A stretch of DNA of 64,000 nt. Origin: Rickettsiella endosymbiont of Miltochrista miniata (GTDB lineage Bacteria > Pseudomonadota > Gammaproteobacteria > Diplorickettsiales > Diplorickettsiaceae). Below are positions 25,160 to 62,073 of the stretch, one piece after another; the first letter of the stretch is position 1, and each line of letters begins with the position of its first letter. The notes beneath the pieces were generated by a model. It ran no database searches, was not told where the DNA came from, and was given only the letters and a program-made list of their open reading frames with translations. The translations under genes were made by a program, and so were the position numbers. Location: contig NZ_OZ035017.1 of assembly GCF_964031245.1 (NCBI RefSeq), positions 215,402 through 279,401 of the forward strand. Reading direction: 5' to 3'.

Positions 25160-25250
25160 TTAATTCTCCTTAAAAATTTTAGCAAGCAAAATATTTGACC
25201 ATTATAGCGCGGTCATTTTATTTCATGAAAGCCTGGACTATAGTTTTTTT

Positions 25251-26835
25251 ATGAATACCGAAGTATTGATTGTTGGAGCAGGCCCCACGGGGCTGATGAT
25301 GGCCTGTCAGCTATTGCGTTATGACGTAAAATTTAGAATTTTGGATAAGCAACGGGATCGAGTGCATGAATCGCGAGCATTCGCTATTCAAGCTAAATCG
25401 ATGGAAATATTCCAAAACTTAGGTGTTGTTGATGAGTTTCTTAAATTAGCGCGTTCGAATGTGGATTTTGCTTTTTTTATTAACGGGAAGAAACAAATAG
25501 AAATAAAGTTTAAGCATTTCAAGCATCAAGACACCCCCTTTCCTTCCGTCTATTTTCTTCCGCAAACAGAAACCGAACGTATCCTGATTGAGTTCTTAGA
25601 AAAAAAAAGGTATTTATATTGAGCGCCAAAAAGAATTAATTACTTTTACGCAAGACATTAAATGTGTGCAGGCAACTATTAAAGACAATATGGTCGGAAG
25701 CACTGAAAAAATTAATTGCGCCTACATCATTGGTTGCGATGGTGCACATAGTAGCACACGTCATACGCTTCATTTTACATTTGAAGGAAATGCTTACCCA
25801 CAAATTTTTAATTTAGTTGATGCAAATATTGAATGGCCCTATTCGCAAAACAAATTTCTTTTTTTCCTAGGAAAAGATGGGGTCTTCGTGCATATTCCGC
25901 TTACTAGGCAAATTAGCCGCATTATGTTAGCAAAACGCGCAGCTCATACTGAAGAAAAACTAACTACCCCGAACTTAATAGAATTAGAGCATTTGGCCAG
26001 TTTGCTGACCCAAGTTTCTGTAAAATTAGTTAACCCAATTTGGATATCTCAATTTCGATTACATCATCGTGGGGTAACGAAATATTATCAACACCGTGCT
26101 TTTCTCGCAGGGGATGCAGCACATATTCATAGTCCGGTAGGAGGTCAGGGTATGAATACCGGAATACAAGATGTCACTAATCTTGCTTGGAAACTAGCTT
26201 TAGTATTGAAAAAGGGTACTAACATTAAATTATTAGATACTTATGAGACAGAAAGGCATCCAGTGGGAAAAATTTTATTAAAAACGACGGATCAGTTTTT
26301 TTCTTTACTCACTGCAAATGGGTTTTTTATTTCCAAACTACGAAATTGGTTACTACCTTTTGTTATTTCGTTTCTTTTTTCAAAGAAAAATTTAGAAAAG
26401 CGTTTATTCTGGTTTATGTCGCAGTTGAATATTCACTATGCTAAAAATCCGTTTAACTATGAGGTCATAGAAAAATCTCACCAAGTATTTAAAGGGGGGC
26501 CATGTCCGGGATATCGCGCGCCCAATGCATCCGCCAATTCATCGACCCTATTTAAATTAGTAAGCCACAAACCTTTTAATATACTTTGTTTTGAGACTAA
26601 AGAGGAACAAATCGATAAGCACATAGAAAAAATAAATGCTTTTATAAAAAATTATCAAGACTGGATGCAGGTTCATGTTTTCGTTTTATCTCCAGCTAAC
26701 GAGCTACTTTTTAAACGATATGGAGTGGTTGCATCTGCAATTTATGTCATCAGGCCCGATGGTTATGTCGGATTTCGCATTAATTCAGATAATTATTTAT
26801 TTTTAGAGGAATATCTAAAGAATTTATTTAAATAA
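25251..26835 (+). pseudogene. FAD-dependent aromatic-ring monooxygenase (PheA/UbiH-like) split by a +1 frameshift in an A9 tract (25600-25608). The two ORFs, 25251-25622 and 25666-26835, fuse if one A is removed.
   Basis: N-terminal GAGPTGL dinucleotide-binding motif. C-terminal part has GCDGAHS and AFLAGDAAHIHSPVGGQGMNTGIQD. The conceptual fusion reads ...EFLEKKGIYIERQKELITFTQD... continuously. Confidence 0.75.
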
Positions 26836-28961: not shown

Positions 28962-31205
28962 GTGGCTTATCGTGAAAAATTTATTTCAATTTTGAATGAA
29001 ATAAAGAAGTTTCCTAGCTTTATGGGCAAGATGACCGCAGTGGATCAATTAAATGATACCACCGCCTTTCCTTGGTTTTTGAATTTCTCCAAAAATTTTT
29101 CTGCAGATTATCGAAAATGTAAAAGTAATAGTTGGAATTATTTATTTTCTATTCATGACTTTAAAAATTCTGATGAGCTCCTGAGTGAGAGTGAAAAAGA
29201 TCCAGTATATAAAAGATTCTATTTAATAAGAAAGTATAATGAACGGTTATTATTTTACTCCAGAGATAAAACCAATCCTTGGGTTATTGACGATAGAGAT
29301 GAGAGTTGTGTAGTTCTGCATAGAAAAAACTATTTCGAATTTGAAAATATATTATCAATACTAATTGATGAAGAAATTAAAAAGAAAGTTTCTAGTAAAG
29401 CTTTAGCTGAAAAAGACATTCAATTAGAAAGAAAGCGTCTTTCGCAGCTAGCAAAACTCGCCCTGTTAAAAACATATAAAGAAGAAACATTAACAGATTC
29501 CGATATCTCTTCAGCGATAACTAGCTTGGATAACGAAGCTGCCATTAACCAATTTAATCAGCTTATTGCTCTAGAAGTAGATTATGTTTCTATTCAGCAA
29601 GAAATAAAAAAAATTAAAAAGAAACAAGCTAAAATAGTTAAAGAACTATACGTTTATTTTTTAAAAGAGACAGAAGCGGTTAGAATTTATTCGATTACGT
29701 CGATTTGGGAGAAAATAAATAAATTTGTAATTAAAAATAAACCAATGCAATTTTTTTCATTGATTTGGTATGGACTGAGTAGCCACGCCAATTTGTTAAG
29801 TTGGATTAGTTTTTTACTACTATTTTTTTCTTTATCTTTGTATAACTATCCAATTATTTTTTTAGTCTTAGGTATATCCTTAGCTAGTTATCTGATCTTT
29901 CGACTTTTTTATTTGGTTAAAAGAGATTCGATAATCTTTCCACAAATTTCTACAGATGAAGCGGAACAGATTCTTGAATTGGTAAAGATAGAGGTATTTA
30001 ATGAGGAAAAAAACAAAAATGAATTTAAGTTAATTCATGAAATAGTTTATGATTTAACCAAAAAAAATCTAAATTTAAATGAATTTTTAAATTCAATTTT
30101 AAGTATTCAGAAAAATTTTGATCCCATTTATCTCCCTAATTTAAGTATTCAAGAATCCAAATTGTATCATTATTTAACAGAGGTCTATCCTAAAACACAA
30201 TTTATAGCCTCATTAACGATTAATTTGACCAGCATTGTACTTTATACTTATTTGTTAACTTGGGCTATTTATAGTGTTTTAATGCTTTTCGGTGCGATTA
30301 GTTTGGCGACTATCATCGCTTCTCCTTTAGTAGTGGGAGTTTTAATTTTAATTGCCGCTACTTTTTTTTTGATAGACCATCTATGTGAATTTCGCGCTAG
30401 AGAAGACTTCTATCAACGAACTATTTTAAATCAGCTTAACGAAAAATGTGGTTATTGTTTTAAAGATCAATATGGTAAGCAACAAATTATTCAAATAGAA
30501 AAATGGAAAAAATTTGAATATTTACAGGATAATATTTGTTTTTTAGAGCTCGAGTTTAAAACTTTTTTCAAGAAAAATGGACTTGATGGTTTAAATAATA
30601 AATTTTATAATTTATTTAATAGCTATATGCTTAAAAAAAATGTTTATAACTTCTCAGAACAAGACAAAGTATTAGGTGACTCGGGCCTTTTTTTTAAAAA
30701 TTTAAAAAAATTTTTAAATCGACTCTTTGCATTTTCGGGAGGTAGTTTTTATGGATATAACTTAACTCAACAAATTGTATGGAAGAGTAATCTAGGAATC
30801 CATGCGCTTGTTAAGACGCTGACTTTACCTATTTTGCTAATATTCATTCCCTTAATTATTATAAATGGCATTGCTAATCTCATTACCTATCACTTGCACA
30901 GTAGACAACGAAATCGGTTCGAAATGGCAAAAAATCTAGATAGTAGGTTAGAAGTTTTAGAACAAACTAATAAAAACCTACTATTTTTAGCAAGCCTTTT
31001 AAGTTTGGAACTTAAATATATATCTGATCCAATGGTTAGTTTGCATGCTGATTCTGTAATGCAGTCAAATTTGTCTTTGCCAAATAAAAATATTTTTTCT
31101 AAAAGATCGGATAATTTTTCTTTTTTTAAAGAGAACCATCAAGAAATAAATCCAAATCAAAAAAATAGAATATCAAGTTCGATACTAAATATTTATAGAA
31201 CTTGA
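28962..31205 (+). CDS. Hypothetical large polytopic membrane protein (AT-rich orphan; effector-like)
   Basis: 747 aa with several hydrophobic segments; Lys/Asn/Glu-rich; no recognisable domain. Confidence 0.5.
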   Translation: MAYREKFISILNEIKKFPSFMGKMTAVDQLNDTTAFPWFLNFSKNFSADYRKCKSNSWNYLFSIHDFKNSDELLSESEKDPVYKRFYLIRKYNERLLFYSRDKTNPWVIDDRDESCVVLHRKNYFEFENILSILIDEEIKKKVSSKALAEKDIQLERKRLSQLAKLALLKTYKEETLTDSDISSAITSLDNEAAINQFNQLIALEVDYVSIQQEIKKIKKKQAKIVKELYVYFLKETEAVRIYSITSIWEKINKFVIKNKPMQFFSLIWYGLSSHANLLSWISFLLLFFSLSLYNYPIIFLVLGISLASYLIFRLFYLVKRDSIIFPQISTDEAEQILELVKIEVFNEEKNKNEFKLIHEIVYDLTKKNLNLNEFLNSILSIQKNFDPIYLPNLSIQESKLYHYLTEVYPKTQFIASLTINLTSIVLYTYLLTWAIYSVLMLFGAISLATIIASPLVVGVLILIAATFFLIDHLCEFRAREDFYQRTILNQLNEKCGYCFKDQYGKQQIIQIEKWKKFEYLQDNICFLELEFKTFFKKNGLDGLNNKFYNLFNSYMLKKNVYNFSEQDKVLGDSGLFFKNLKKFLNRLFAFSGGSFYGYNLTQQIVWKSNLGIHALVKTLTLPILLIFIPLIIINGIANLITYHLHSRQRNRFEMAKNLDSRLEVLEQTNKNLLFLASLLSLELKYISDPMVSLHADSVMQSNLSLPNKNIFSKRSDNFSFFKENHQEINPNQKNRISSSILNIYRT

Positions 31206-31565
31206 AGTTTAAAATATTAAAAATTAATTTTAAATATTCTTTTATGATACTAGTCTTATGTTAAGCTTAATTAATGTGAATTCAGAATTTCTGCGACGGA
31301 AACATTTTTATTGCCCTTATCTCTAAATTCGCATTATACTTTTTAATTAGAACATTATTAGTTTGCTGAATGAGGGATTTTCTATGGGATATACAATTAC
31401 TGTTGGGGCAGATAAATCATTTTTATTGTCAGACAACGACCAGATTAATAATAAGATTCTTTTCTAAAGAATCCCAATCAGAATCCCAATGCTCTGGAGG
31501 AGAAGCTTTCTATTTTACAAGAGTCTCCTTCTATTCTAATTACTGAAAATGCAGAATGGTTTTCT

Positions 31566-33162
31566 TTGGAAACAGGAGAGCCTATTCAAGAATTTGTTGA
31601 TTCATTAAAAAACTTGAATTTTTTGGAGCAAGATATCTACGAAAAATTACAGGGTTTGTTCTCCGTTAATCCAGTAGGCAATCAACTCTATAATGCGATT
31701 AAGGACTATGTTGTTAAAAGTTGTAACAGTGATGAACTTCACTTTACAACCTATTCGTTTGCAGAACGATGTTTACGTTTCCTAATCGCTTTATTAACTT
31801 TACCTATATCTATTTTTAGAATGCACCTAGTTAATGAAGGAGAGATAGGTTTAGTGTTATGTTCTGGAAAAGCTGAAATGCTACCACCAGGATGGCATGT
31901 AATGCTCGCGCCCACCACTGAATTTGTTGGTAAAAGAAGAATAGACGAGCCTTACATTCAACATGGTGCAATGAAATTGGTTCGGGTTCAAGAAGGTCAG
32001 TTAGGTTATGCTCAGGATACTAAGACGGGAAAGCATTTATTCTTGACGCCAGGGTTCCATATGATCCCCCTTGCCACGACCAAATTTATTAAATTTTTAG
32101 ATTTGGAAAGGGAAATCAATGAACTGGATCCTGGTAAGTTGGTCTCAATTAGGACAGGAACAGAAGGGGTTATTTATGATGAGGAAGGACGCCTAGTGAT
32201 GAAAAAGCCAGGGGTTCATTTTATCGTCCCGCCTTCTAAACTAATAAAAATTATATCGACTCAAGATAGTATTATGGAATTACCAGAAGCTATCTATGAG
32301 AGCAGTGATTATGTCCCCCTGAAAATCAAAGCTGATGTATTTTATCGAATTACTAATACTGAAAAAGTATGTAAGAAAATTGATCCTAACCTTTTAGATA
32401 AGTACCTCCATGATACAGCTATATTCTACCTTTAAAGAAATTGGCCAAAGTTCTACGCCTGCCTATAATGCCAGTTCTAGTTCCAGTACTCAGCAAGATT
32501 TAAATAATTCAGAGTTATCCCCGCCCCCCTATTCTTTTTATTCAAAAATGCATGATGCCTTTATTCGGGAATTACAGCGTCATGGGATCCATGATTTAGG
32601 AATAGATATCTTTAATATTAGAATTGAATCGTTAAGCATACAGGATCAGGAATTAGCTAAAACTATTGCTTCACAGTCTCTCCTGTTTGCTGAAACGCAA
32701 GCTAAATTAGCTAATATGGAAGCCGGCAATCAAATTCAAGAGGCTGATGCGAAACAAAAGGCAAGTAGCCGACTTATTGAAGCACAAGCAACGGCTATTA
32801 CAATGCAAGCAAATGCCGAAGCAGAAGCTATTAAGATCAAAGCAAATGCCGAAGCAGAAGCTATTGAAGTAACAGGAAAAGCACAAAATCAAACTTTAGT
32901 AGGTAAATGGAAGGCTTTAGCAGTAGGGGGTAAGGCTGTGGAAGGTAATCCTACAGCGCAGCAAGCTGCTTTGATACTGGTAAATAATGAACAATTAAAC
33001 GGTGTACAAAAGGTAATTTATTTACCAGGTAAAATGACGCAAGGCATAATAGGAGATCTTGTAAACTGTGGGATTTTTAGTGGGAATAGTGATAACCCTC
33101 CATTGAATTCGGTTAGTCTTTTGCCGGAAAACACAGAGCATCAAAAGGTTTTTGCACGGTAA
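31566..33162 (+). pseudogene. SPFH/band-7 (flotillin-like) protein split by a +1 frameshift near 32431-32436 (ORFs 31566-32435 and 32410-33162)
   Basis: N-terminal ORF has an SPFH core (GEIGLVLCSGK...PGFHMIPL...IRTGTEGV). C-terminal ORF has the flotillin-type Ala/Glu-rich helical repeat (EAQATAITMQANAEAEAIKIKANAEAEAIEV). Removing one T gives ...AIFYLKEIGQSS... continuously. Confidence 0.65.
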
Positions 33163-34666: not shown

Positions 34667-35767
34667 TCAAGTGCGAAGCGTATACTTTTGAGAGCGTAAA
34701 TAATGATCCATAATGACTAAGGCTGCCATTGCGTCAACAATAGGGACAGCTCGGGGTAGAACACAAGGATCATGTCTGCCTTCGGTAACTAACTCCAGCA
34801 TCTCGTTTTGTAAGTTAAGTGTTTGTTGTGGTTTGCTAATGCTCGAAGTCGGTTTGAATGCAACACGAAAATAAATATCTTCACCGGTAGAAATACCACC
34901 TAAGGTGCCGCCAGCATGATTAGAGGTAAATGACGGTTTGCCATTTTTAATGATCATTTGATCATTATGTTCACTACCGCACATGCCAGCTCCTCTGAAT
35001 CCTGATCCAATTTCAAATCCTTTTACGGCGTTTATGCTCAGCATTGCTTTGCCTAAATCAGCGGATAATTTATCAAACACAGGTTCACCTAGCCCTGGAG
35101 GAACGTGACGTATCACACATTTGATGACACCCCCGATGGAATCACCCTCATTTTTTACACTTTCTACTAATTGAATCATTTGTGCAGCTAAAATCGGGTC
35201 TGGACAACGAATCATATTGGCTTCAATTTGGGTTGGAGTTATCGTTTGATGATCGATTTGCGTAGATAAATGACCGACTTGCTCTACGTAGCTAATAATT
35301 TCAATATTTAATTTTTGGTTTAAGAATTTTTTTGCAATAGCTCCCGCAGCGACTCTAGCCAATGTTTCTCTAGCACTGGCACGGCCACTGCCACGAAAAT
35401 CACGTCGCCCATATTTCATCATATAAGTAAAATCAGCGTGAGACGGTCTATATACATTTTTTAATGCTTCATAATCTTCCGGTCGCATATCGGCATTATA
35501 GGCTAGCAGTAATATCGGTGTGCCAGTGGTTTTTCCTTCAAATACACCGGATAATAAATGAATGGTGTCACGTTCATTTCTGGGGCTAGTAATATGACTC
35601 TGTCCCGGTTTGCGTCGATCTAACTCTAATTGAATGTCATGCTCTGAAATTTCCAACCCTGGAGGACAGCCATCGACTATCACGCCCACAGCTCCCCCAT
35701 GCGATTCGCCACAGCTAGTTATTTTAAATAATTTGCCAAAAGAATTGCCGGCCATATTATTCCTCAA
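34667..35767 (-). CDS. aroC: Chorismate synthase
   Basis: N-terminal GESHG signature; 366 aa. Confidence 0.93.
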   Translation of the reverse strand: MRNNMAGNSFGKLFKITSCGESHGGAVGVIVDGCPPGLEISEHDIQLELDRRKPGQSHITSPRNERDTIHLLSGVFEGKTTGTPILLLAYNADMRPEDYEALKNVYRPSHADFTYMMKYGRRDFRGSGRASARETLARVAAGAIAKKFLNQKLNIEIISYVEQVGHLSTQIDHQTITPTQIEANMIRCPDPILAAQMIQLVESVKNEGDSIGGVIKCVIRHVPPGLGEPVFDKLSADLGKAMLSINAVKGFEIGSGFRGAGMCGSEHNDQMIIKNGKPSFTSNHAGGTLGGISTGEDIYFRVAFKPTSSISKPQQTLNLQNEMLELVTEGRHDPCVLPRAVPIVDAMAALVIMDHYLRSQKYTLRT

Positions 35768-36926
35768 TTGTTTTTTTTATTGCTAGGTTGACGATTTTAT
35801 CTGTAACAGGATGAACATAGTTACCATTATTAATATAGATACTGCCAATGTCATTTAATAGTGCGTAATGTACTTTCCCTAATCGAATTTTTTTATCGAT
35901 TTTTGTTGCCTGCAGGATTTCTGCTGGCTTATATTTTTGTAGATCTTTTCCATAAATACCTAATTGTGCGAACAGATTTTTTATTATTAATAAAGCTTTG
36001 CTATCTAATAAACCTAATAAATAAGAAATATTTGCCTCGACTAATATGCCATAAGCCACCGCATATCCATGTAATAAAGTGTAATTTGATATCTTTTCTA
36101 AGGCATGGCCGATGGTATGGCCAAAATTGAGAACGCTACGCTCCCCTTGTTCTTTTTCATCTCGACCTACAACAGCGGCTTTAATTTTAACTGCTTTGGT
36201 GACAATTTCATTCAAATATAGGGCACTTCCTTGGATAAGATACTTAAGATTTGATTCCGTGTAATAAAGGCCTTTTGCATCATAAGTTAAAAACATTTTA
36301 ATGGCTTCTATTAAGCCATTAATCATATTTTTTTTGGATAAAGTTTTTAATAACATAACATCGATAACAACACATAAAGGTTGATAAATAACTCCTATTA
36401 AATTTTTACCATATAGCGTATTAATACCCGTTTTTCCGCCGATACTACTATCCACTGTAGCCAACAAAGTAGTTGGAATTTGGATGTAAGGGACGCCACG
36501 TAAATAGGTTGCTGCAATGAATCCGGTCAGATCTCCTACAACACCACCACCTAGGGCAATAATTAACGTATCCCGATTACAACCATGTAACTGCATGTTA
36601 TTTTCTAACCTTTGTTTAGTTTTATAGGTTTTAAATTTTTCACCTGCTGGGAACGAAAATAATAAACTTTTGTAGCCTGCTTGCTGCAAACATTTTTGTA
36701 ATTCTAAGCCATAAAGTTTTTTCACAGTATGGTCAGTGATAATAACTATTTGTTGGAATGCTAATCTTGGTAACCAAGCAGAAAAATCATATAAATTAGC
36801 CCCAATAATAACAGGGCAGTTTATGCTTTGTTCGATAGGCATGGGCATAGAAATTTTATTTAACATGATTGTACTTCTTGGGCTAAGGTAAGTAATAGAT
36901 TTTCGGTTTGTTCCCAATTTAAACAA
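35757..36926 (-). CDS. aroB: 3-dehydroquinate synthase (N-terminus likely shorter than the ORF)
   Basis: GGGVVGDLTGF nucleotide-binding motif and metal-binding His residues. Confidence 0.85.
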   Translation of the reverse strand: MFKLGTNRKSITYLSPRSTIMLNKISMPMPIEQSINCPVIIGANLYDFSAWLPRLAFQQIVIITDHTVKKLYGLELQKCLQQAGYKSLLFSFPAGEKFKTYKTKQRLENNMQLHGCNRDTLIIALGGGVVGDLTGFIAATYLRGVPYIQIPTTLLATVDSSIGGKTGINTLYGKNLIGVIYQPLCVVIDVMLLKTLSKKNMINGLIEAIKMFLTYDAKGLYYTESNLKYLIQGSALYLNEIVTKAVKIKAAVVGRDEKEQGERSVLNFGHTIGHALEKISNYTLLHGYAVAYGILVEANISYLLGLLDSKALLIIKNLFAQLGIYGKDLQKYKPAEILQATKIDKKIRLGKVHYALLNDIGSIYINNGNYVHPVTDKIVNLAIKKTIEE

Positions 36927-37906
36927 GGATCGGTAATCGATAAGCCATTTAAGTCGATAGAAGTAGAATTACAAGCTTCAAGCTTTTGATTTCCTTCCTT
37001 TAAATAACTCTCTAGCATGAAGCCTTTCATTAAACGGCGTAATTCCGGAAACATTTTTAAGTACTGCATAATCTCAGAAATAGCAGTAAGTTGTGCTCGA
37101 TGATCTTTTTTTCCATTAACCAAGCTATTATCATGGCTAACATCAATAACCACCGCTGGGTTTTTTATTTGCTGCGCCAGCATATGTTGCTTTATAGATT
37201 CAAGATGTGCGCGCGAATAATTTGGCATTTTATTGCAACCACGCAAAACCAAATGGGCGTAGGGATTCCCAGGTGTTCGTATTTCATAGCCATGCATAGC
37301 AGCGATATGTGAATGCTGTGCAGCGACGACGCTGTTGATACTCACATCGATAGCACCATGTGTTGGATTTTTCATGCCCACAGGACAATCTGCAGCAGAT
37401 GCAAAAATTCGATGTTCATGATCTTCACTACTTCTGGCACCAATCGCAAACCATGAAACCAACTCTAAAAATCCACGGGAATTATGCGTAAATAAACATT
37501 CATCAGCGATAGGTAATCCGAGCTCCACAATCTTGACCATCATTTCGCGAACATAATGCATGCCTGCTTCAATATTAGGTTCAGCATAGGGATCAGGTTG
37601 ATTAAGCGGGCCGGTCCAACCTTTGGTGGTGCGGGGTTTTTGAATATATACACGCATAACAATTTTTAATGATTGCTTGACGCGCGCATTCACTTTTAAT
37701 AAACGTTCTGCGTATTCCAGCACCGCATCCTTGGGCCATGCTGAACAGGGGCCGATAATCATTAATAAGCGACGATCTCGACCTGCTAAAATATCCTTTA
37801 TTTCTCGCCTGTCGAGCATAATTTTTTGGTGTCCTTCGGCAGATAAAGGATATAATTGAATAATCTCTTCTACGCGAGGTAATTCTTTAAGTTGTAGATA
37901 ATTCAT
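36860..37906 (-). CDS. 3-deoxy-D-arabino-heptulosonate-7-phosphate synthase, class I (AroF/G/H type)
   Basis: 348 aa; IIGPCS motif; DAHP synthase I family. Confidence 0.85.
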   Translation of the reverse strand: MNYLQLKELPRVEEIIQLYPLSAEGHQKIMLDRREIKDILAGRDRRLLMIIGPCSAWPKDAVLEYAERLLKVNARVKQSLKIVMRVYIQKPRTTKGWTGPLNQPDPYAEPNIEAGMHYVREMMVKIVELGLPIADECLFTHNSRGFLELVSWFAIGARSSEDHEHRIFASAADCPVGMKNPTHGAIDVSINSVVAAQHSHIAAMHGYEIRTPGNPYAHLVLRGCNKMPNYSRAHLESIKQHMLAQQIKNPAVVIDVSHDNSLVNGKKDHRAQLTAISEIMQYLKMFPELRRLMKGFMLESYLKEGNQKLEACNSTSIDLNGLSITDPCLNWEQTENLLLTLAQEVQSC

Positions 37907-38736
37907 AAAAAAGTCGCTGTTTGGTCTTGTATTAATATTTTTCTAAGTTTTTTTATAATCGTCGGCGTAAGATATTGGCCGGTTAGCAATTCGATTTGTT
38001 TTAATCCTTGACCTATAAACATATCTAAACCAGAAATAATGTTTGCGCCTTGTTTTTTTGCTTGTTTTAACAGTGGAGTCATTAACGGGTTGTAGACCAT
38101 ATCAAACACAACTTGCTTTGGATTAAATATATATACTGGTAGCTGTGACGTATCTACATTTCGGTAGAATCCAAGGGGTGTCGTGTTGATGATGATATCG
38201 ATCGACAGACCATCTAGTTCATTACTGGTAACAACCTTTCCACCAAATTTTTTTGCTAAAACCGTTGCTTTTTTTGATGTTCTATTTATCCAAAAAAGTT
38301 GGGCTTGGTTTTTTTTGAGAAAATAGGCCACCCCTCGCGCCGCACCACCTGCACCAATTATCAGAACTTTTTTATTGCTGACGGCGATATGGCGTAAGGC
38401 AAAATTGATCCCATCAATATCTGTGTTGTATCCATACAATTTCCCATCACGTTGAATAATAGTATTGGTCGCTTGTAATTCGTTGACTTCATCACTGCAA
38501 TGATCGAGATAGTTAATAATTTTTTCTTTAAAAGGTGAAGTTACTGCTGTGAGTGGAATTTCTAGCGTTTTTATTACCGTTATTAATGATTTAAGCGGCA
38601 GCGAGCGCGGCTGTGCTAAGAAAATTGCATTGATCCCGAGTAATTGATAGCTAAACGTATGTAACATAGGACTTTGCGAATGTTCTAGTGGATAACCAAT
38701 CACCATATTTAATTGTGTTTTGCTGTTTATTTTCAT
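37903..38736 (-). CDS. aroE: Shikimate dehydrogenase
   Basis: GYPLEHSQSP N-terminal motif and GAGGAARG NADP-binding motif. Confidence 0.85.
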   Translation of the reverse strand: MKINSKTQLNMVIGYPLEHSQSPMLHTFSYQLLGINAIFLAQPRSLPLKSLITVIKTLEIPLTAVTSPFKEKIINYLDHCSDEVNELQATNTIIQRDGKLYGYNTDIDGINFALRHIAVSNKKVLIIGAGGAARGVAYFLKKNQAQLFWINRTSKKATVLAKKFGGKVVTSNELDGLSIDIIINTTPLGFYRNVDTSQLPVYIFNPKQVVFDMVYNPLMTPLLKQAKKQGANIISGLDMFIGQGLKQIELLTGQYLTPTIIKKLRKILIQDQTATFL

Positions 38737-39170
38737 GATTTTAAATATTCCATTAAGGTATTCACCGCTTCTCGATAACCTTGTTCTTTCTTACCTTTTA
38801 TGATTTTTATACAAGCCGGTGCAATGACGGATTGTTTTCTCCATGCTTCGCGATGCTGCGTATCAGATAAATGTACTTCCACAACTGGTAAACCAGTATC
38901 AATTAGAGCGTCATGTAAACCATAGCTATAATGTGTGAATGCCCCTGGATTAATAATGATGCCCAAGCAATTTTTGCTCTCCGCTTGCAATTTATTAACT
39001 AAATTACCTTCATGATTTGATTGATAGGAAACGATTTTAAATCCATGTTTTTTTGCTTCTTGGGTAGTGATAGCGCTAATCTCTTTGAGGGTTAAATTGC
39101 CATAATGCATTGCATCGCGTTCACCTAAAAGATTCAAATTTACTCCATGTAATAGTAATAACTTAGACAT
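38733..39170 (-). CDS. aroQ: 3-dehydroquinate dehydratase, type II
   Basis: 145 aa; LLLHGVNLNLLGERD and type II signature. Confidence 0.9.
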   Translation of the reverse strand: MSKLLLLHGVNLNLLGERDAMHYGNLTLKEISAITTQEAKKHGFKIVSYQSNHEGNLVNKLQAESKNCLGIIINPGAFTHYSYGLHDALIDTGLPVVEVHLSDTQHREAWRKQSVIAPACIKIIKGKKEQGYREAVNTLMEYLKS

Positions 39171-41010
39171 AGTGGTTTTGCTCCGAGTTTATTTGGAGAT
39201 GAACAAGTGCCTCGTTGACAGCATGATCAATAGAATGGTTGTTATTGATAGTAAAAGCTGCCAATTTTTGGTAAGTTTCACTGCGTTCATCCCATAAACG
39301 ATTAAATGATTCATAAGAATCTTCACTTGGATCAAAAAAACTAGGACGACCTTCGATCATAATGCGCTCAAACACGATGCCACGTGGTGCTACCACATGC
39401 AGTAAACGATGCGGTTTTAGCAGGTCTTGATTAAACTGACTTATAGTCGTTCCCCCGCCTAAAGAAATCACACAGGCTGGTAATTTAAGTGCTAGTTGTA
39501 ATGCTTCTGACTCTAATTGGCGATAATAGTGTTCGCCGTGTGACTGCATAATTTCGCGACAAGAAAAAGTTTCGAGATAAATTTTTTTATGTAAAATCTC
39601 AACTTCTCGATCGAGATCAATAAAGCTTTTATTAAGTGCTTTTGCTAAATGTCTACCTATCGTTGTTTTACCTACATGTTTAAATCCGATTAGAATGATC
39701 GGATTATTAATACCGGTATTTTTCAGACTTATGTTTGCTCCTATTTTTTGCATGGAGGGAACAAAATCTGGATAGGTTTTGTTAATGGCTATTGCGTCTG
39801 TTATCAATGTTGTTCCGCGTGCGATCATTCCAGCAACTGTAAGTGCCATTACCGTACGGTGATCACCAAATCCTTTTACCAAGCTACCTTTTAGATTGCT
39901 TTGGTGCACGATGATTCCGTCTGGATTTTCCTCTATTTTGGCACCCATTTGTCTCAACCCTGATGTCATGGAATGAATGCGATCGGTTTCTTTAATACGT
40001 GCTTGGATGACATTGTAAAGTTCAGTTTTACCAATTGCTTTTGTGGCAATGACGGCCAGAGTCGGTAATAGATCGGGGATATCATTGGCATCAATACGCA
40101 TCCCTCTTAACGGTTTGCCACCTTTGATTTTTATATTATTTTGATTGATCTCTATCTCTGCGCCCATCTCTTGTAAAATACTTATTAATCGTTTATCTCC
40201 TTGTCCATCATTATTGTTTAATCCTAGTATTTGCACTTCTCCTGGAATGAGCGTTGCGGCAGCAATCAGATAAGATGCCGAGGAAAAATCACCATTGATA
40301 TAGGCACGAATGGGCTTATATGCTTGCTTTCCATGGATGTGAAAAGTGTCGATATTAGCAACACGCTGGTGCGTATAATTGATCCCTAGTTCTTGCAACC
40401 ATTCGAGTGTCATATCAACATACGGACGTTCGTGTAAATCTTTTACCGAGACGACACTATTATTTTCAGCACACGGCAGCCCCATCAATAAAGCGGATAA
40501 ATATTGAGAACTAATGCCTGCTATCTCAGTAACCCCTCCTTTTAATGTACCGCTCACTAAAAGCGGCAAATGCCCCGCTGACTCAAGATACTGGATATGC
40601 ATACCTAGCTGATTTAATGCATCGACCAATGGTTTAATGGGTCTGGCCCGCATTTGTTGGTCGCAGTTAAGGAGGATAGGGTTGATATAATTTTTACGTA
40701 ATCCTAATAATGGCAGGATAAATCGAGTCGTTATACCTGAATTTCCGGTGTGGATTTCTGCGGCGGCAGAGCTGAAAGCTAGCCCTTCACTTTGTATGCT
40801 GAGCTTATGGGCGGTTAGGTGAATGTTGGCTCCTAACGCTTTACATACTTCGATAGTCGCGCGTGTGTCATCAGAGCTCAATGGATTAAGCAAAGTTGAT
40901 TCTCCTTTGGCAAGTAATGCAAATAACATGCCGCGGATAGTGTGTGATTTCGAGCTGGGTGAGAGGACGCTCCCACTTAAAGCTATGCTTGGATTTACGA
41001 TAAGAGTCAT
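39163..41010 (-). CDS. aroA: Bifunctional EPSP synthase (N-terminal, ~430 aa) fused to shikimate kinase (C-terminal, P-loop GFKHVGKTTIG)
   Basis: EPSPS motifs (LLNPLSSDDT, GNSGITTRF), then IILIGFKHVGKTTIGRHLA...DLD shikimate kinase Walker A and DxD. Confidence 0.85.
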   Translation of the reverse strand: MTLIVNPSIALSGSVLSPSSKSHTIRGMLFALLAKGESTLLNPLSSDDTRATIEVCKALGANIHLTAHKLSIQSEGLAFSSAAAEIHTGNSGITTRFILPLLGLRKNYINPILLNCDQQMRARPIKPLVDALNQLGMHIQYLESAGHLPLLVSGTLKGGVTEIAGISSQYLSALLMGLPCAENNSVVSVKDLHERPYVDMTLEWLQELGINYTHQRVANIDTFHIHGKQAYKPIRAYINGDFSSASYLIAAATLIPGEVQILGLNNNDGQGDKRLISILQEMGAEIEINQNNIKIKGGKPLRGMRIDANDIPDLLPTLAVIATKAIGKTELYNVIQARIKETDRIHSMTSGLRQMGAKIEENPDGIIVHQSNLKGSLVKGFGDHRTVMALTVAGMIARGTTLITDAIAINKTYPDFVPSMQKIGANISLKNTGINNPIILIGFKHVGKTTIGRHLAKALNKSFIDLDREVEILHKKIYLETFSCREIMQSHGEHYYRQLESEALQLALKLPACVISLGGGTTISQFNQDLLKPHRLLHVVAPRGIVFERIMIEGRPSFFDPSEDSYESFNRLWDERSETYQKLAAFTINNNHSIDHAVNEALVHLQINSEQNHYV

Positions 41011-41040
41011 TTTTCGCTACTCATTATTGACTATACTCTT

Positions 41041-41076
41041 GTAACGCTGTATCATTACAAGAGTATATCATAACGA
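41041..41076. promoter_or_regulatory. 13-bp perfect inverted repeat TATACTCTTGTAA-N10-TTACAAGAGTATA in the aroA / trpE divergent promoter region; candidate operator
   Basis: Perfect palindrome located 10 nt upstream of the trpE start and about 30 nt upstream of the aroA-aroK start on the other strand. Confidence 0.4.
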
Positions 41077-41086
41077 GACTTTACGA

Positions 41087-42520
41087 ATGATGCAAGCTTT
41101 ACCCTTAGATGAATTTCAGCAGTATGCCAACGATGCCAAGCGAGTAGCAGTTTTCAAAGAGATTCCTGCTGATCAGCTAACTCCCATCCAGATTTATTGT
41201 CGGTTGAAAAAAGCCTATGCAGCAGAAGGGGCCATGTTTGAGGATCTCCATCAAAGAGACGCCGTTCGTTACTCTTTTATATGTTTTGAACCTATTGCAA
41301 GCCTGACTAGAAATGACGTCGATGATAATCATCCATGGGCAGAGCTGCGGGATTTACAGTCACAGCTACGTTTTGCGACGCGACCCGAAGTAGCCGATTT
41401 AATTACTAGCGCAATAGGCTTTATTACCTATGATGCGGTGCGTTATTTTGAAGCAATACCTATTCATCCAGTCGTTCATACTAAATTGCCATTAATCGAA
41501 TTTAATTTTTATGCTCTGAATCTTAGTTTCAATCATGAAAAGCAAACCCTGTTAATTAGTTACTTGGTTGCAGTAGGGGCAGATCCAGAGCAAGCCTATT
41601 ATCAGGCGCAACAGAAAATAGTCACTATTATAGAACTTTTAAGCACAGCGGTTTATGAAATAAAGGTGCCGGCTACACGACAAATAACTGATTCGGTCGA
41701 AGTTGATATATCCGATGCGGATTTTATGCTTAAAGTAGAAAAAGCTAAGAATTTTATTATCCGAGGCGATGCTTTTCAGATTGTTATCTCGAGATGCTAT
41801 AAATGTAACTATTTTATTTCTCCTTTAGATATCTATACAACATTACGCCGAGTTAGTCCTGCTCCGTTTATGTTTTATTTTACAAGTGGTGCAAATGTCA
41901 TTATCGGAGCCTCGCCTGAGCGCTTGGTCAGTGTATATAACAAAAAAATTACCGTGAATCCTATTGCAGGTACACGTAAACGTAAGAAAGAGCTAAGTGA
42001 TAAGTCGATCGAAGAGGACTTACTAAATGATCCTAAGGAACGAGCGGAGCATATGATGCTGGTTGATTTAGCCAGGAATGATGTCGGTGCGGTAAGTGTT
42101 CCTGGTAGCGTGCAGTTAAAAGATTTTTTTCAAGTAAAACATTATTCTCACGTCAGTCATATTACATCGACTGTCATGGGTGAACTGCAAGAAAAGTACG
42201 ATGCTTTAGATGCCTTTACTGCTGTTTTTCCAGCCGGAACGCTTAGTGGTGCCCCAAAAATTCGTGCCATGCAAATTATTAATGAATTAGAGACTACCAG
42301 TCGAGGATTATATGGTGGAGCTATCTGTCGTCTTGATTCTTTAGGGAATTTAGATAGTTGTATCGCTATTCGAATGGCCATACTCCAAGAAGGGGTAGCG
42401 ACCATTCGAACGGGAGCGGGTATTGTCTATGATTCGAATCCTGCTGACGAAGCACAAGAAACCTATCAAAAAGCATCCGCTATGTTGGATGCCATTAGCC
42501 AAGCACATGCGGGAGAATAA
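41087..42520 (+). CDS. trpE: Anthranilate synthase component I
   Basis: 477 aa; chorismate-binding domain; LSGAPK-like motif. Confidence 0.93.
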   Translation: MMQALPLDEFQQYANDAKRVAVFKEIPADQLTPIQIYCRLKKAYAAEGAMFEDLHQRDAVRYSFICFEPIASLTRNDVDDNHPWAELRDLQSQLRFATRPEVADLITSAIGFITYDAVRYFEAIPIHPVVHTKLPLIEFNFYALNLSFNHEKQTLLISYLVAVGADPEQAYYQAQQKIVTIIELLSTAVYEIKVPATRQITDSVEVDISDADFMLKVEKAKNFIIRGDAFQIVISRCYKCNYFISPLDIYTTLRRVSPAPFMFYFTSGANVIIGASPERLVSVYNKKITVNPIAGTRKRKKELSDKSIEEDLLNDPKERAEHMMLVDLARNDVGAVSVPGSVQLKDFFQVKHYSHVSHITSTVMGELQEKYDALDAFTAVFPAGTLSGAPKIRAMQIINELETTSRGLYGGAICRLDSLGNLDSCIAIRMAILQEGVATIRTGAGIVYDSNPADEAQETYQKASAMLDAISQAHAGE

Positions 42521-42521
42521 G

Positions 42522-43133
42522 ATGTTATTAATTATAGATAACTACGATAGTTTTACTTATAACCTTTATCAAGCTGTGGCATCTTTTTATAGCGACGTCT
42601 GCGTTATTCGCAACGATAAAATTACTATCAATGATATTAAACGAATGTCACCGGCGGGAATTATTTTATCTCCGGGTCCTGGGCGACCTGAAACAGCAGG
42701 GATTTGCGTTGCTTTAATTCATGCTTTAGTAGCGGGTGAACTTTCAGCACCATTGTTAGGTGTTTGCTTGGGCCATCAAGCTATAACCATTGCTTTAGGC
42801 GGACGTGTTATTCAGTCGGAAAAAATAGTGCATGGTAAAGATGACATTATTTTTCATAAGCAAACGGGCCTATATCAAAAGCTTACTCAGCCATTTAAAG
42901 CAGGTCGTTATCATTCATTGATTAGTGAGCGCGCAACTTTACCTTCTACATTGATCATTGACGCTGAAAATGAGCGGCAAGTCATTATGGGTGTGCGACA
43001 TCATCAATTACCTATTTATGGTGTCCAGTTCCACCCCGAATCTATTTTGACACCAGAAGGACCACTTTTATTACGGGAATTTCTTGCCATCTGCAATAAA
43101 AACTCAAAAACAGGTGTAACGGATGTTGCTTAG
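42522..43133 (+). CDS. trpG: Anthranilate synthase component II (glutamine amidotransferase)
   Basis: MLLIIDNYDSFTYNL, GVCLGHQ catalytic Cys, and HPES. Confidence 0.9.
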   Translation: MLLIIDNYDSFTYNLYQAVASFYSDVCVIRNDKITINDIKRMSPAGIILSPGPGRPETAGICVALIHALVAGELSAPLLGVCLGHQAITIALGGRVIQSEKIVHGKDDIIFHKQTGLYQKLTQPFKAGRYHSLISERATLPSTLIIDAENERQVIMGVRHHQLPIYGVQFHPESILTPEGPLLLREFLAICNKNSKTGVTDVA

Positions 43134-44130
43134 ATCCAGCATAGAAAAATTGATGCGTGGTGAAGATTTGCAAAGCCATGTTTGTCAACAAGTAGTGGAT
43201 GAGATCTTATGCCCGACTATTAATCCATTACAAATTGCAGCTTTTTTAGTGTTATTACGAGCCAAAAATGAAACCGCTGATGAATTATCAGCTATTGTGA
43301 AAGTTCTGCGCAACAGAATGGTAGTGGTGCCGACCAAGCATGCCGTGCTAGATATAGTCGGAACAGGTGGCGATGCATCGAATACCATAAATATTTCTAC
43401 AGGCAGCGCGATTCTTGCTGCAAGTTGTGGGATTAAAGTCGCTAAACATGGCAATCGTTCGATATCGTCATTAACAGGTTCCGCAGATGTGCTCGAAGCC
43501 TTAGGTGTGAATATTCAATTAACTCCCGATCAAGTGAGCAAAAGTATAGCTCAAATTGGCATTGGTTTCTGTTACTCGCCGAATTTTCATCCCATGACCC
43601 AAGCACTGCGACTTTTTCGAAAAACATTAAATGTCCCTACCACGTTTAATATTTTAGGCCCTTTATTAAATCCTGCTAACGCAGCCCATATTGTTTTAGG
43701 TGTGCTTGATGAAGCATTACTCCCAATTATGGCAGATGTATTATTACAAACAGGTAGCGATCGGTCAGTGGTGGTGCATAGCATGGGCTTAGATGAAATC
43801 AGTTGTGTAGGTCCTACAAAAATTATTGAAGTCAGCAAGCAAGAAAAACATGAATATATGATTGATCCATTACAGTTTGGCTTGCAACGTTGCACGATTA
43901 CCGATTTGCGTGGCGGAGAGGCAGAAATTAATGCACGTCTGTTGTTAGATACTTTTAAGGGAAAACGTGGAGCTATTGCAAATACACTTATTTTAAATAC
44001 AGCCGTTGCTCTCTACATTTATGGATTATATCCATCAATCTCGGAAGCTTTATTACACGCAAGTGATAATTTATATAGCGGCAAAGCCTTAAGATTATTA
44101 AATGCCTGGATTGAATTTTCTCATGACTAA
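43123..44130 (+). CDS. trpD: Anthranilate phosphoribosyltransferase
   Basis: GTGGD motif and NxxGP. Confidence 0.93.
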   Translation: MLLRSSIEKLMRGEDLQSHVCQQVVDEILCPTINPLQIAAFLVLLRAKNETADELSAIVKVLRNRMVVVPTKHAVLDIVGTGGDASNTINISTGSAILAASCGIKVAKHGNRSISSLTGSADVLEALGVNIQLTPDQVSKSIAQIGIGFCYSPNFHPMTQALRLFRKTLNVPTTFNILGPLLNPANAAHIVLGVLDEALLPIMADVLLQTGSDRSVVVHSMGLDEISCVGPTKIIEVSKQEKHEYMIDPLQFGLQRCTITDLRGGEAEINARLLLDTFKGKRGAIANTLILNTAVALYIYGLYPSISEALLHASDNLYSGKALRLLNAWIEFSHD

Positions 44131-44926
44131 CAGACTTACAGCGATTCTAATGGAAAAACAGCGTGAAGTAGCCGATTTGCGCCAGCGATTGGCGAGCAAT
44201 AATAATCATGCCATCACACAAGTACTGCGCGGCGAGTTAGTGCCGAAACGTCCACAGAGCTTTAAAGCGGTGTTAAATGCTCCCGCTCTTTCTGTGATTG
44301 CAGAAATTAAACGTAAATCACCTAGTAAAGGTGAGTTGGCCGCTATTCAAGATCCCATTAGCTTAGCAGAATGTTATATTTCGGGTGGTGCTAGCGCATT
44401 ATCAATTTTAACGGATAAGAAATTTTTTGCTGGCGATATCACTGATCTGATCCAAGTGTCAAAGGCAATAGCTGATCGAAGCATTCCAATTATTCGTAAG
44501 GATTTTATTATCGATAAGATACAAATTGCAGAAGCTGCCGTTGCCGGAGCAAGTGCAGTGTTGTGTATTATCGCTGTTCTTGGAAAAAAAACTAAAATCT
44601 TACTGGAGTTTGCTCGTTCGATTAATCTCGATGTACTCGTTGAAATTCATGATCAGAATGAGCTCGCGATCGCTTTAGATTGTGGCGCAGAGATCATCGG
44701 AGTTAATAATCGTAATCTCAAGACATTCACTGTTGATACGCAGCATGCATTACATATGGTCTCTGCAATACCGGATAATATTATTAAAGTTGCAGAGTCG
44801 GGTATTACGCATCCTGCTTTGGCAAGAGAATATTATCAGGCTGGTTATAATGCCGTATTAATTGGTGAATCATTAGTCAAATCGGATGATCCTGAAAAGT
44901 TTATTAGGGAATGTTCTTATGACTAA
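44102..44926 (+). CDS. trpC: Indole-3-glycerol phosphate synthase (alternative start 44123, in the ATGACTAA stop-start overlap with trpD)
   Basis: IAEIKRKSPSKG and LVEIHD motifs. Confidence 0.9.
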   Translation: MPGLNFLMTNRLTAILMEKQREVADLRQRLASNNNHAITQVLRGELVPKRPQSFKAVLNAPALSVIAEIKRKSPSKGELAAIQDPISLAECYISGGASALSILTDKKFFAGDITDLIQVSKAIADRSIPIIRKDFIIDKIQIAEAAVAGASAVLCIIAVLGKKTKILLEFARSINLDVLVEIHDQNELAIALDCGAEIIGVNNRNLKTFTVDTQHALHMVSAIPDNIIKVAESGITHPALAREYYQAGYNAVLIGESLVKSDDPEKFIRECSYD

Positions 44927-45554
44927 TTACTTGATAAAAATTTGTGGAATTCGTAGTGCCGAAATGGCATCACTGGCGGTTATAGCGGGTGCTAACTTGA
45001 TTGGAATTATTTTTCACCCCTTATCACCGCGTTATGTTGGAATAGAACAAGCTATACGTATTTCTCAAGCAGTGAGAGCATCAGGTGCATTGCCTGTAGC
45101 CGTATTTGTTCATCATACCGCGATTGAAATGCAATGCATCTGCGAACTCACTAATATAAATATCGTTCAGTTACATGGCGTCGCATCGCGTGCATCCCAT
45201 CAATTATTACCTGGGGAATACCAACGGATCTATGTGCAAACGGTTTCAAATCAAGGTGAGTTACAAACCGATGAAGGCTTGCGTTTCCTTGATGCGGATC
45301 GGGATTTAATCTTGATTGATCATAGTCAACCTGGGCAGGGAAATAAAATTAAGCAAGCTTTTCACTATCATTTACCTTTTCGTTGGTTATTAGCAGGTGG
45401 ACTGACCGCATTTAATGTGGCAGCAGCGATTAATGATATGCAACCTAATGGCGTCGATGTATCGAGTGGTGTTGAATTAAGTAAAGGAAAGAAAGATATT
45501 TTTCTCATTAAGCAATTTATTCAATCCGTAAGAGGCAAGTTTCATGTTAGCTAA
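44919..45554 (+). CDS. trpF: Phosphoribosylanthranilate isomerase (stand-alone, not fused to trpC)
   Basis: IKICGI N-terminus; about 210 aa; same ATGACTAA overlap with the trpC stop. Confidence 0.85.
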   Translation: MTNYLIKICGIRSAEMASLAVIAGANLIGIIFHPLSPRYVGIEQAIRISQAVRASGALPVAVFVHHTAIEMQCICELTNINIVQLHGVASRASHQLLPGEYQRIYVQTVSNQGELQTDEGLRFLDADRDLILIDHSQPGQGNKIKQAFHYHLPFRWLLAGGLTAFNVAAAINDMQPNGVDVSSGVELSKGKKDIFLIKQFIQSVRGKFHVS

Positions 45555-46740
45555 AGATTTCTTAGTTGAGAATAGAGGTCGTTACGGGGAGTTTGGTGGA
45601 ATATATCTTCCGGAATTATTAATGCAACCTATCGAAGAACTTATCTTTGCTTGGGATAACGCTAAAAAAGATCTTATTTTTAAACAGGAATTAAATTTTC
45701 TTTTAAAAAATTATGCCGGAAGACCTACGCCATTAACAGAAATTCCTGCTTTTGCTGCAAAAATTAATGGACCGAGAATCTTTTTAAAACGAGAAGATTT
45801 ATTACATACGGGGGCACACAAATTGAATAATGCCTTGGGCCAATGTTTATTAGCCAAAAGGATGGGTAAAACGCGTGTCATTGCCGAAACTGGAGCGGGT
45901 CAACATGGTGTAGCGACGGCAGCAGCTTGTGCGCGACTTGAGTTGAAGTGCGTGATTTATATGGGCAGTAAAGATATGCAACGTCAGTCAAGCAATGTGT
46001 CACGCATGCAATTGATGGGTGCGACAATTGTTGCGGTCGAACAAGGCTCAGCGACTTTAAAAGAGGCAGTGAATGAAGCTTTGCGCGATTGGTCCTCATC
46101 GTTTAGCGATACGCATTATTGTTTAGGCTCAGCATTAGGACCACATCCTTATCCTGCTATGGTTGCAGAATTTCAAGCAGTTATTGGGAGTGAAAGCCAT
46201 CAACAATGTCAGCAACAAATTGGCAGCAATCCTAATATAGTTATTGCCTGCGTGGGTGGGGGTTCGAATGCAATTGGGCTATTTTCAGGATTTTTCTCCG
46301 ATGAAGAGGTACGCATGATAGGTGTAGAAGCCGGAGGACATGGTAAGCAACTTGGAGAGCATGCCGCACGATTTTATACTGCGAGTCCGGGTGTTTTACA
46401 TGGTTGTTACACTTTTATATTGCAAGATCGGCATGGACAAATTGCACCGACGAGTTCGATTTCAGCCGGTTTAGATTATCCTGCGGTTGCTCCGCAACAT
46501 GCTGAACTTTTTAAACGTCGTCGTGTCGAATATGTGGCAGCCAATGATGATGAAGCAATATATGCATTAAAATTATTAGCTAGAACAGAAGGTATTATTT
46601 GCGCGTTAGAATCCGCGCATGCTTTAGCGCATTTAATTAAAATTGCTCCTATGCTTGCTAAAGACCAGATTGTGCTAGTGAATTTATCTGGTCGTGGCGA
46701 TAAAGATTTACCACAATTAATGGATAAGTGTGTGATTTAA
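45544..46740 (+). CDS. trpB: Tryptophan synthase beta chain
   Basis: PLP-binding HTGAHKLNNALGQ and GGGSNAIG. Confidence 0.93.
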   Translation: MLAKDFLVENRGRYGEFGGIYLPELLMQPIEELIFAWDNAKKDLIFKQELNFLLKNYAGRPTPLTEIPAFAAKINGPRIFLKREDLLHTGAHKLNNALGQCLLAKRMGKTRVIAETGAGQHGVATAAACARLELKCVIYMGSKDMQRQSSNVSRMQLMGATIVAVEQGSATLKEAVNEALRDWSSSFSDTHYCLGSALGPHPYPAMVAEFQAVIGSESHQQCQQQIGSNPNIVIACVGGGSNAIGLFSGFFSDEEVRMIGVEAGGHGKQLGEHAARFYTASPGVLHGCYTFILQDRHGQIAPTSSISAGLDYPAVAPQHAELFKRRRVEYVAANDDEAIYALKLLARTEGIICALESAHALAHLIKIAPMLAKDQIVLVNLSGRGDKDLPQLMDKCVI

Positions 46741-46741
46741 G

Positions 46742-47524
46742 ATGAAAACCCTATCGCGAATACAACAATTATTTCAAAACGGTAAGGCATACACGGCCTA
46801 TTTAACTGCGGGCGATGGTGGCGTGCAATCTACACTCGATGCAGCGCTTGCTCTAATTAAGGGCGGCGTAAATATGCTAGAAATTGGCGTACCTTTTTCC
46901 GACCCTATTGCTGATGGACTTATCATTCAGCGTGCATCGCAACGATCATTGGCAAAAGGAACTTGCTTAGCAGATGTTTTATGGATAACAAAACAGATCC
47001 GCCAACAGAGTGATATTCCAATCATTTTATTCAGTTATCTTAATCCGATATTATCTGCTCTACCATCTGATTTTTTACCCGCAGCAAAAAATGCAGGTAT
47101 TGATGGTCTTTTACTGGTTGATTGTCCCTTGGAAGCATCAGATTTTATTCATCAACAATGTAATAAAAATGACATAGCGCTTATTTATGTTATTGCACCA
47201 AGTACCCCATTGACACGCATTAAGATAATCAATACCTATGCGCAGGGATTTTTATATTATGCCTGTCAGAAAGGCACTACAGGTTTGCGCAATGAATTGC
47301 CCAAGAATTTTCGAGAAAAAATAAATACGCTCAAATCAATGGTAGATTTACCTGTTATTGTTGGGTTTGGTATTTCAAATCAAGAAGCAGTATACCGTGT
47401 GTTACAGTATGCTGATGGGGTTGTTGTAGGATCGTTATTTGTTAAGGCATTGGAAGAAGGGGCGAGTCCGTCGACTTTAACGAAACTTGCACAAAATCTA
47501 TATCCGAAGCCAGTACATAATTGA
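46742..47524 (+). CDS. trpA: Tryptophan synthase alpha chain
   Basis: LEIGVPFSDPIADG signature. Confidence 0.9.
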   Translation: MKTLSRIQQLFQNGKAYTAYLTAGDGGVQSTLDAALALIKGGVNMLEIGVPFSDPIADGLIIQRASQRSLAKGTCLADVLWITKQIRQQSDIPIILFSYLNPILSALPSDFLPAAKNAGIDGLLLVDCPLEASDFIHQQCNKNDIALIYVIAPSTPLTRIKIINTYAQGFLYYACQKGTTGLRNELPKNFREKINTLKSMVDLPVIVGFGISNQEAVYRVLQYADGVVVGSLFVKALEEGASPSTLTKLAQNLYPKPVHN

Positions 47525-61979: not shown

Positions 61980-62073
61980 AATATAAGGAGGTGAACCTAA
62001 AAACATACTAATTAAGCAGGATTGTTATTATAAAAAATATTATCAATTATTAAAATTATTAAAAGGAAAATTT

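Follow-up and report, generated by a model that had tools for sequence, protein, structure and literature searches.

Two adjacent open reading frames (ORFs) in the Rickettsiella endosymbiont of Miltochrista miniata are one gene, encoding a 527-residue group A flavin adenine dinucleotide (FAD) monooxygenase, and not a chance juxtaposition. The gene lies in a 64,000-nucleotide (nt) stretch of contig NZ_OZ035017.1 (positions 215,402 to 279,401, forward strand), which we call the window and in whose coordinates all positions are given. The gene is split by a run of nine A where related genomes with an intact gene have eight. The explanation that we favor, with moderate confidence, is a recent replication-slippage mutation that has made a young pseudogene with trace read-through at most. 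With slightly more confidence we infer that the A9 is a real DNA mutation, i.e., that the extra A is present in the DNA and is not an artefact of assembly.

The 5' part of the gene (25251..25622, +; WP_342220296.1) is read in the 0 frame and encodes 123 residues, 119 of them native and followed by Arg-Tyr-Leu-Tyr, so that the product ends …EFLEKKRYLY at a premature TGA read from the sequence at 25620..25622 (+). The +1 frame is open from just past a TAG at 25597-25599, i.e., over 25600..26835 (+), and carries Gly120-Lys527 from 25609 to the natural stop at 26833-26835. RefSeq places the 3' part at 25657..26835 (+), taking an ATT as the start of a 392-residue product (WP_342220827.1; P0121) without the GXGXXG fold; the ORF at 25666-26835, of 389 residues, holds GCDGAHS and GDAAHIHSPVGGQGMNTGIQD. 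Because the TAG at 25597-25599 shuts the +1 frame and the TGA at 25620-25622 the 0 frame, a frame change joining the two parts is possible only in 25600-25619, a stretch that starts with the A run. The run, at 25600..25608 (+), is exactly nine A, and positions 25590-25610 read GAGTTCTTAG AAAAAAAAA GG. The ancestral A8, GAA AAA AAA G, specifies Glu117-Lys118-Lys119 and is the longest homopolymer of the gene. Removal of one A from the A9 gives a stop-free ORF of 527 residues in which the repaired junction, EFLEKKGIYIERQ, is the same as in intact orthologs, and the closest ortholog matches a 50-residue peptide spanning that junction at 100% identity. The junction peptides of the joined frames would be …EFLEKKGIYIER or …EFLEKKKGIYIER. 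An earlier note on this DNA had described the ORFs as two halves of one FAD monooxygenase, with the frame changing inside the A run and A8 restoring EFLEKKGIYIERQKELITFTQD. The Pfam match, 13 intact full-length orthologs and the DNA alignment of the tract bear out this reading.

The full-length orthologs of the repaired protein have 525-537 residues (identity 92, 90, 87, 86% and lower), and every one of the 13 that are intact is a single chain within that range of lengths. In the DNA alignment, the A8 spelling GAA AAA AAA G is found in seven intact copies (L002, L003, L004, L024, L025, L009 and L027), which have 77-92% amino acid identity and conserve the order psd-gene-GH129; more distant intact copies have an interrupted tract, e.g., GAAAAGCAAGG, GAAAAACAAGG and GAAAGAAAAGG. 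From this alignment we take A8 as ancestral for the subclade and the extra A as private to the Miltochrista miniata Rickettsiella genome, because the closest relatives have A8 and an intact gene. A young pseudogene is expected to have a frame-breaking indel in a mononucleotide run relative to intact orthologs, and the window copy has one, A9 against A8 in seven relatives. The earlier note had proposed ortholog comparison as a way to expose an old pseudogene shared by relatives; that idea is ruled out by the intact nearest relatives, and the event appears instead to be young and lineage-specific.

Three side observations concern these orthologs. The closest intact one (L001/L002, JBHGAL010000009.1; 92% amino acid identity, psd-gene-GH129 order) lies on a contig that is titled 'Wolbachia endosymbiont of Folsomia candida MAG-FC1' and looks Rickettsiella-like, so that the bin or label may be wrong. 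In L023 (1418-1460; ENA ERZ2227351, coverage 2.6), G-A17-G replaces GAGTTCTTAGAAAAAAAAG with total length unchanged, giving EKKKKKG for EFLEKKG. In the near-identical strain L024 the tract is the usual A8, and the A17 is probably an artefact of low-coverage reads or of assembly, an expansion also being possible. Finally, a T7 run at 25244-25250 lies immediately 5' of the start codon. In L027 the run is T8, which brings an upstream ATG (MKVWTIVFF...) into frame and yields the 536-residue form found in the annotation of some relatives; which start codon is usable therefore depends on how long the T run is.

Outside the A run, comparison with its relatives shows neither a stop nor an indel in the monooxygenase gene. 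The ratio of non-synonymous to synonymous substitution rates (dN/dS; Nei-Gojobori) is 0.09-0.19 between the window copy and five relatives and 0.09-0.25 among intact relatives. The private changes of the window copy are 19 synonymous and 15 non-synonymous, a ratio that resembles that of other short branches, and dS to the nearest relative is about 0.22. Neither relaxed constraint nor further lesions, the marks of an older pseudogene, were found in the window gene, a result that fits a very recent event or an error. The gene has been under purifying selection for essentially the entire divergence, and the frame change, if real, is very recent. The event is placed as recent because the rest of the gene is undamaged and its dN/dS equals that of the intact copies.

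The repaired protein matches PF01494 (FAD_binding_3) at 282 bits (cut-off 22; E 8.5e-84) over residues 3-343 and profile positions 2-346 of 349. Group A FAD monooxygenases are defined by the GXGXXG, DG and GD fingerprints, and their flavin binding requires both the ADP-binding fold and the DG/GD motifs. In the repaired protein, the GXGXXG dinucleotide-binding motif is GAGPTG (25275..25292, +; residues 9-14), of which G9, G11, P12 and G14 are invariant among 32 homologs. The DG motif is GCDGAHS (25732..25752, +; residues 161-167), with C162, D163, G164, A165 and S167 invariant in the same set, and the GD motif, GDAAH...GIQD, spans 26110..26172 (+; residues 287-307), its fingerprint residues likewise invariant. 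Sequence comparison with solved proteins places the angucycline oxygenases PgaE and CabE, BexE and rifampin monooxygenase nearest, at E values of 1e-50 to 1e-41. In a comparison with NCBIfam profiles, no equivalog or subfamily cut-off was reached, UbiH-type included; the best score was 319 bits for PRK06184 (cut-off 476), with 152 for Ubi-OHases (225) and 210 for rif_monoox (800). The label 'PheA/UbiH-type' used in the earlier note thus holds at the superfamily level and not for a specific family, given the missed NCBIfam cut-offs and the position of PgaE/CabE and rifampin monooxygenase as the nearest solved proteins.

The AlphaFold model of ortholog P0001, which is 92% identical and of equal length, has a predicted local distance difference test score (pLDDT) of 85.3 and a predicted template modeling score (pTM) of 0.88. 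In Foldseek comparisons, it aligns with VibO, phenol hydroxylase, PieE, RebC, PgaE and OxyS at template modeling (TM) scores of 0.73-0.84. The P0001 model has the three-domain fold with a C-terminal thioredoxin-like domain; the Pfam Phe_hydrox_dim match, at 21.6 bits, is under the 24.9 cut-off. The group A aromatic hydroxylases PgaE, CabE, rifampin monooxygenase, phenol hydroxylase, VibO and RebC are thus like the Rickettsiella protein in PF01494, the three motifs and the fold, but their identity to it is only 20-28%. One property of a group A monooxygenase gene, an uninterrupted coding sequence, is lacking: the A9 shifts the frame into the stop at 25620-25622. In the P0001 model the break site, residues 117-120 (EKKG), is at the end of helix 105-118, within the FAD-binding domain. 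By this model the N-terminal fragment would retain the ADP-binding fold only, and the remainder would have the DG and GD motifs without the ADP-binding fold. The genomic neighbors psd and GH129 give no pathway clue. Because the enzyme acts on aromatic substrates, a tie to the aro and trp clusters, which lie 8-20 kb off, was considered but is not claimed: the hydroxylase is in neither cluster, and its conserved neighbors are psd and GH129.

In the mechanism that we propose, strand slippage in replication would have added one A to the ancestral A8 at codons 117-119, producing the A9. Translation would then halt after 119 native residues plus RYLY, and with the ADP-binding fold severed from the DG/GD flavin-binding motifs, normal reading would give no active enzyme. 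A small full-length fraction might arise if RNA polymerase slipped to A8 or to A11, the latter adding one Lys, or if the ribosome shifted +1 at AAA_AGG; any residual full-length protein would be an unselected by-product of the tract. A young pseudogene is the most likely outcome because the gene is accessory and has been repeatedly lost in related symbionts. Eighteen other loci covering the full gene were counted, 13 intact and 5 disrupted. In L028, on a 74-kb contig, the sole lesion is an A7 at this tract; Rickettsiella sp. Oerr (L020) has A7 together with many stops and is otherwise degraded. The two A7 states are probably independent, because each resembles the intact A8 copy L009 (91.9% for L028 and 93.3% for L020) more than it does the other (90.3%). 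Frameshifts are also found in Rickettsiella sp. Opha (L017), in an A6G7 stretch, and in L029, at a T7-to-T8 run; the gene of L030 has several lesions. Judged by these aligned loci, the accessory hydroxylase gene has been lost repeatedly among related symbionts. That most hits are in the longest homopolymer is the expectation for replication slippage, and no special explanation is needed.

The length of A runs in the window was examined by comparing the sense strands of 34 intact ORFs with synonymous-codon shuffles. The numbers are small. Runs of 6-8 are at or above expectation, with 15 A8 runs observed for 8.0 expected, and a single run of at least 9 was seen where about 4.7 were expected. The spelling AAA AAA AAA is used for none of the four Lys-Lys-Lys triplets. 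These counts suggest a sharp length limit, with A8 about the longest in-frame run tolerated, and that many genes are one slip from A9.

Several points weigh against a real young pseudogene. Exact look-ups in a collection of 15 billion proteins found neither the 527-residue repaired protein, nor the 528-residue form expected from A11, nor the 389-residue protein. Metagenome scans with a strain-specific 30-mer and a relaxed gapped pattern gave 0 hits, and exact look-ups of P0025 and the flanking psd protein found nothing on record. Further, a lone lesion in an otherwise perfectly conserved gene also matches the pattern of an assembly error. The record name, which is the sole and unchecked source for this point, suggests PacBio high-fidelity (HiFi) reads assembled as a Darwin Tree of Life cobiont, and long-read HiFi assemblies retain indel errors chiefly in homopolymers and tandem repeats (PMC12212083). 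That the true genome has A8 and an intact gene, the extra A having been called in the homopolymer consensus, is thus possible, though we regard it as distinctly the less probable account. It agrees with a +1 lesion in the longest homopolymer of a gene otherwise intact and under purifying selection, and the look-ups and scans yielded no second sequence of the strain to contradict it. Set against it are the other homopolymers of the window, which has 26 A or T runs of at least 8 nt, 24 of them within ORFs. Because 23 of the 24 coding runs keep the frame, among them a T9 at 30362-30370 and an A9 at 50126-50134, homopolymers are not generally miscalled in this assembly. Real decay is also found 6 kb away, in an SPFH/Band_7 gene (31384-33162, +) downstream of the monooxygenase gene. 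Relative to its orthologs of 597-603 residues, that gene has lost a T from a TT pair, giving a TAA near 31464, and has a 26-nt deletion at about 32422, where nine codons (ATLSGIIRN) are replaced by a single base; there is also a 6-nt in-frame loss from a tandem AAGCAC repeat. On its sequence the SPFH gene is certainly a genuine pseudogene, and real gene decay has occurred in this genome, because neither of the frame-breaking lesions can be a homopolymer miscall. In 12.7 kb aligned to syntenic L027 (89% identity), internal frame-breaking indels are found in the monooxygenase and SPFH genes only. Finally, natural loss of the monooxygenase gene is common, because other assemblies have probably independent length changes at the same tract and frameshifts elsewhere in the gene. 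The earlier note had left the cause open among a pseudogene, a homopolymer error and slippage; this is still apt, the first two being inseparable by sequence alone. The young pseudogene that we favor resembles the homopolymer-frameshift pseudogenes of Buchnera, Blochmannia and Rickettsiella viridis, in which a single-base indel in an A/T run kills a non-essential gene of an AT-rich intracellular symbiont. It differs from them in that the genome here is not strongly reduced, mutS is intact, selection is unrelaxed and the indel is known from the assembly alone.

Readings in which the A9 gene still has a function were judged much less probable. It is improbable that the tract is a tolerated or selected slippery site from which useful enzyme is made by transcriptional slippage, a +1 ribosomal shift or reversible A8/A9 phase variation. 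Nine A, the run length looked for at the frame change in slippage rescue, is a length at which bacterial RNA polymerase slips: 9-A or 9-T runs yield mRNAs with extra bases (PMC5009743), and at the A9 of Yersinia pseudotuberculosis tssM3 15-25% of the product is frameshifted (PMC4256274). Insertion of an A in an A8 run of M.HaeIII is bypassed in Escherichia coli, giving active enzyme (Rockah-Shmuel et al. 2013, PMC3812077). That lesion is of the same kind and some full-length functional protein is still made, but the M.HaeIII gene was plasmid-expressed under laboratory selection. Trace read-through as a by-product is plausible. The direction of rescue is unfavorable here, since the frame would be restored by a 1-nt deletion in the mRNA (A8) or a 2-nt insertion (A11, one Lys added), while single insertions predominate at A/T runs; in Buchnera no restored frames were seen (PMC5574713), and E. 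coli polymerase has no detectable deletion rescue on poly(A) up to A8 (PMC6260861). In the known poly(A) rescues of Buchnera/Blochmannia, Citrobacter rodentium tssM1 (A11) and Y. pseudotuberculosis tssM3 (A9), there are likewise at least 9 A at the frame change and a 0-frame stop within 4 codons, but there the frameshift is either conserved or of demonstrated function, and bases are inserted to restore the frame. Here the closest relatives are in frame with A8, and the A7 variants are distant, one of them already degraded, so the frameshift is not retained across lineages.

For a ribosomal shift, the candidate site is AAA_AGG_T (25605..25611, +), the sole position of perfect re-pairing. It pairs a shift-prone P-site Lys codon with a slow A-site codon, AGG being the rarest Arg codon (2.0 per 1000 codons; 32 of 721 Arg codons). 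As at the +1 sites Ty1 CUU_AGG_C and prfB CUU_UGA_C, the P-site codon can re-pair in +1 (AAA to AAA) before the slow codon, but the likeness is of the heptamer only: the site is absent from relatives and has neither an upstream Shine-Dalgarno-like stimulator nor regulatory logic. No stimulatory structure was found in the 92 nt after the tract (z = +1.1; 175 of 200 shuffles fold as well), and inspection upstream of the shift site revealed no Shine-Dalgarno-like element, so that both the stimulator and the conservation of a programmed frameshift are lacking. Nor is slippage expected to be raised, at the DNA by virtue of intact mutS or on Lys-tRNA by virtue of intact mnmG. Marginally less probable again is a reversible or leaky A8/A9 switch in arthropod-associated Rickettsiella, in which the A9 here and the A7 of L028 and L020 would be on/off states or dosage tuning. 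The variation of the tract among lineages (A7, A8, A9), in a mononucleotide run within an ORF, does recall contingency loci, but some 25 other runs in the 64 kb are no shorter, mutS is intact and an aromatic hydroxylase is an atypical gene class for phase variation. Selection for the tract itself was rejected, GAA AAA AAA being the default spelling of Glu-Lys-Lys under the codon usage (GAA 75%, AAA 82%). Least credible of all, to the point of being very improbable, is that there are two separate functional proteins of 123 and 392 residues, as in the RefSeq annotation, where WP_342220296.1 and WP_342220827.1 are each listed as a protein. All 13 intact orthologs are single chains, the 392-residue product depends on an ATT start for which no ribosome-binding site is evident and lacks the GXGXXG ADP-binding fold, and the cut is inside the modeled FAD-binding domain.

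The remainder of the window is intact. At least 90% is coding, counting an ORF that runs off the left end, and the G+C content is 38%. Complete Pfam matches were found for ileS, lspA, priA, mutS, psd, GH129, the CCA-adding enzyme, ksgA, mnmG and mfd, and for aroC, aroB, DAHP synthase, aroE, aroQ, aroA-aroK, trpEGDCFBA and a branched-chain 2-oxoacid dehydrogenase. The genome is not strongly reduced, because the window is densely coding, mutS, mfd and mnmG are intact and the aro and trp sets are complete; the likening to reduced endosymbiont genomes in the earlier note was therefore loose. In R. viridis there are 57 pseudogenes per 1,378 proteins (PMC6016236), and the pseudogene load of the window, 2 in about 57 genes, agrees with that rate, a point in favor of a real mutation; the R. 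viridis genome paper (PMC6016236) does not mention a monooxygenase. Other candidates for homopolymer-linked splits, at 8766, 35771 and 37907, were rejected as ordinary gene boundaries (lspA/permease, aroB/aroC and aroE/DAHP synthase, respectively). The overlap at 52492/53207 was also rejected as a split: ksgA has a complete profile match and is followed by a short ORF without a family match. Rfam and tRNA scans across the window found nothing.

Some other features of the window were noted. The shikimate genes (aroC, aroB, DAHP synthase, aroE, aroQ and the aroA-aroK fusion) and trpEGDCFBA are adjacent and intact at 34667-47524, and because both sets are complete the symbiont retains aromatic amino acid synthesis. 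At 61482-63772 (+) there are four tandem paralogous ORFs of 158-165 residues, with mutual identity of 22-50%, hydrophobic N-termini, conserved cysteines and no Pfam match; they are possibly a family of secreted proteins. A 652-residue ankyrin-repeat protein (Ank_2, E 5.5e-66) is encoded at 2522-4480 (-), beside a large ORF at 1-1980 (-) that crosses the left end, and the two resemble the effector-type genes typical of intracellular Legionellales.

The split monooxygenase gene is an ordinary feature that involves no new mechanism and adds one case to a known pattern. The practical outcome of the analysis is a correction of the annotation together with evidence of repeated loss. Where RefSeq lists two FAD-dependent monooxygenases, there is a single frameshifted gene in two fragments; the nearby SPFH gene is broken too. 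The split monooxygenase gene also offers a cheap test of what share of the single A8-to-A9 'frameshifts' in cobiont genomes of large sequencing projects is real. Across Rickettsiella and Aquirickettsiella, the accessory hydroxylase beside psd/GH129 appears from these loci to have undergone independent losses, usually by slippage in its longest homopolymers.

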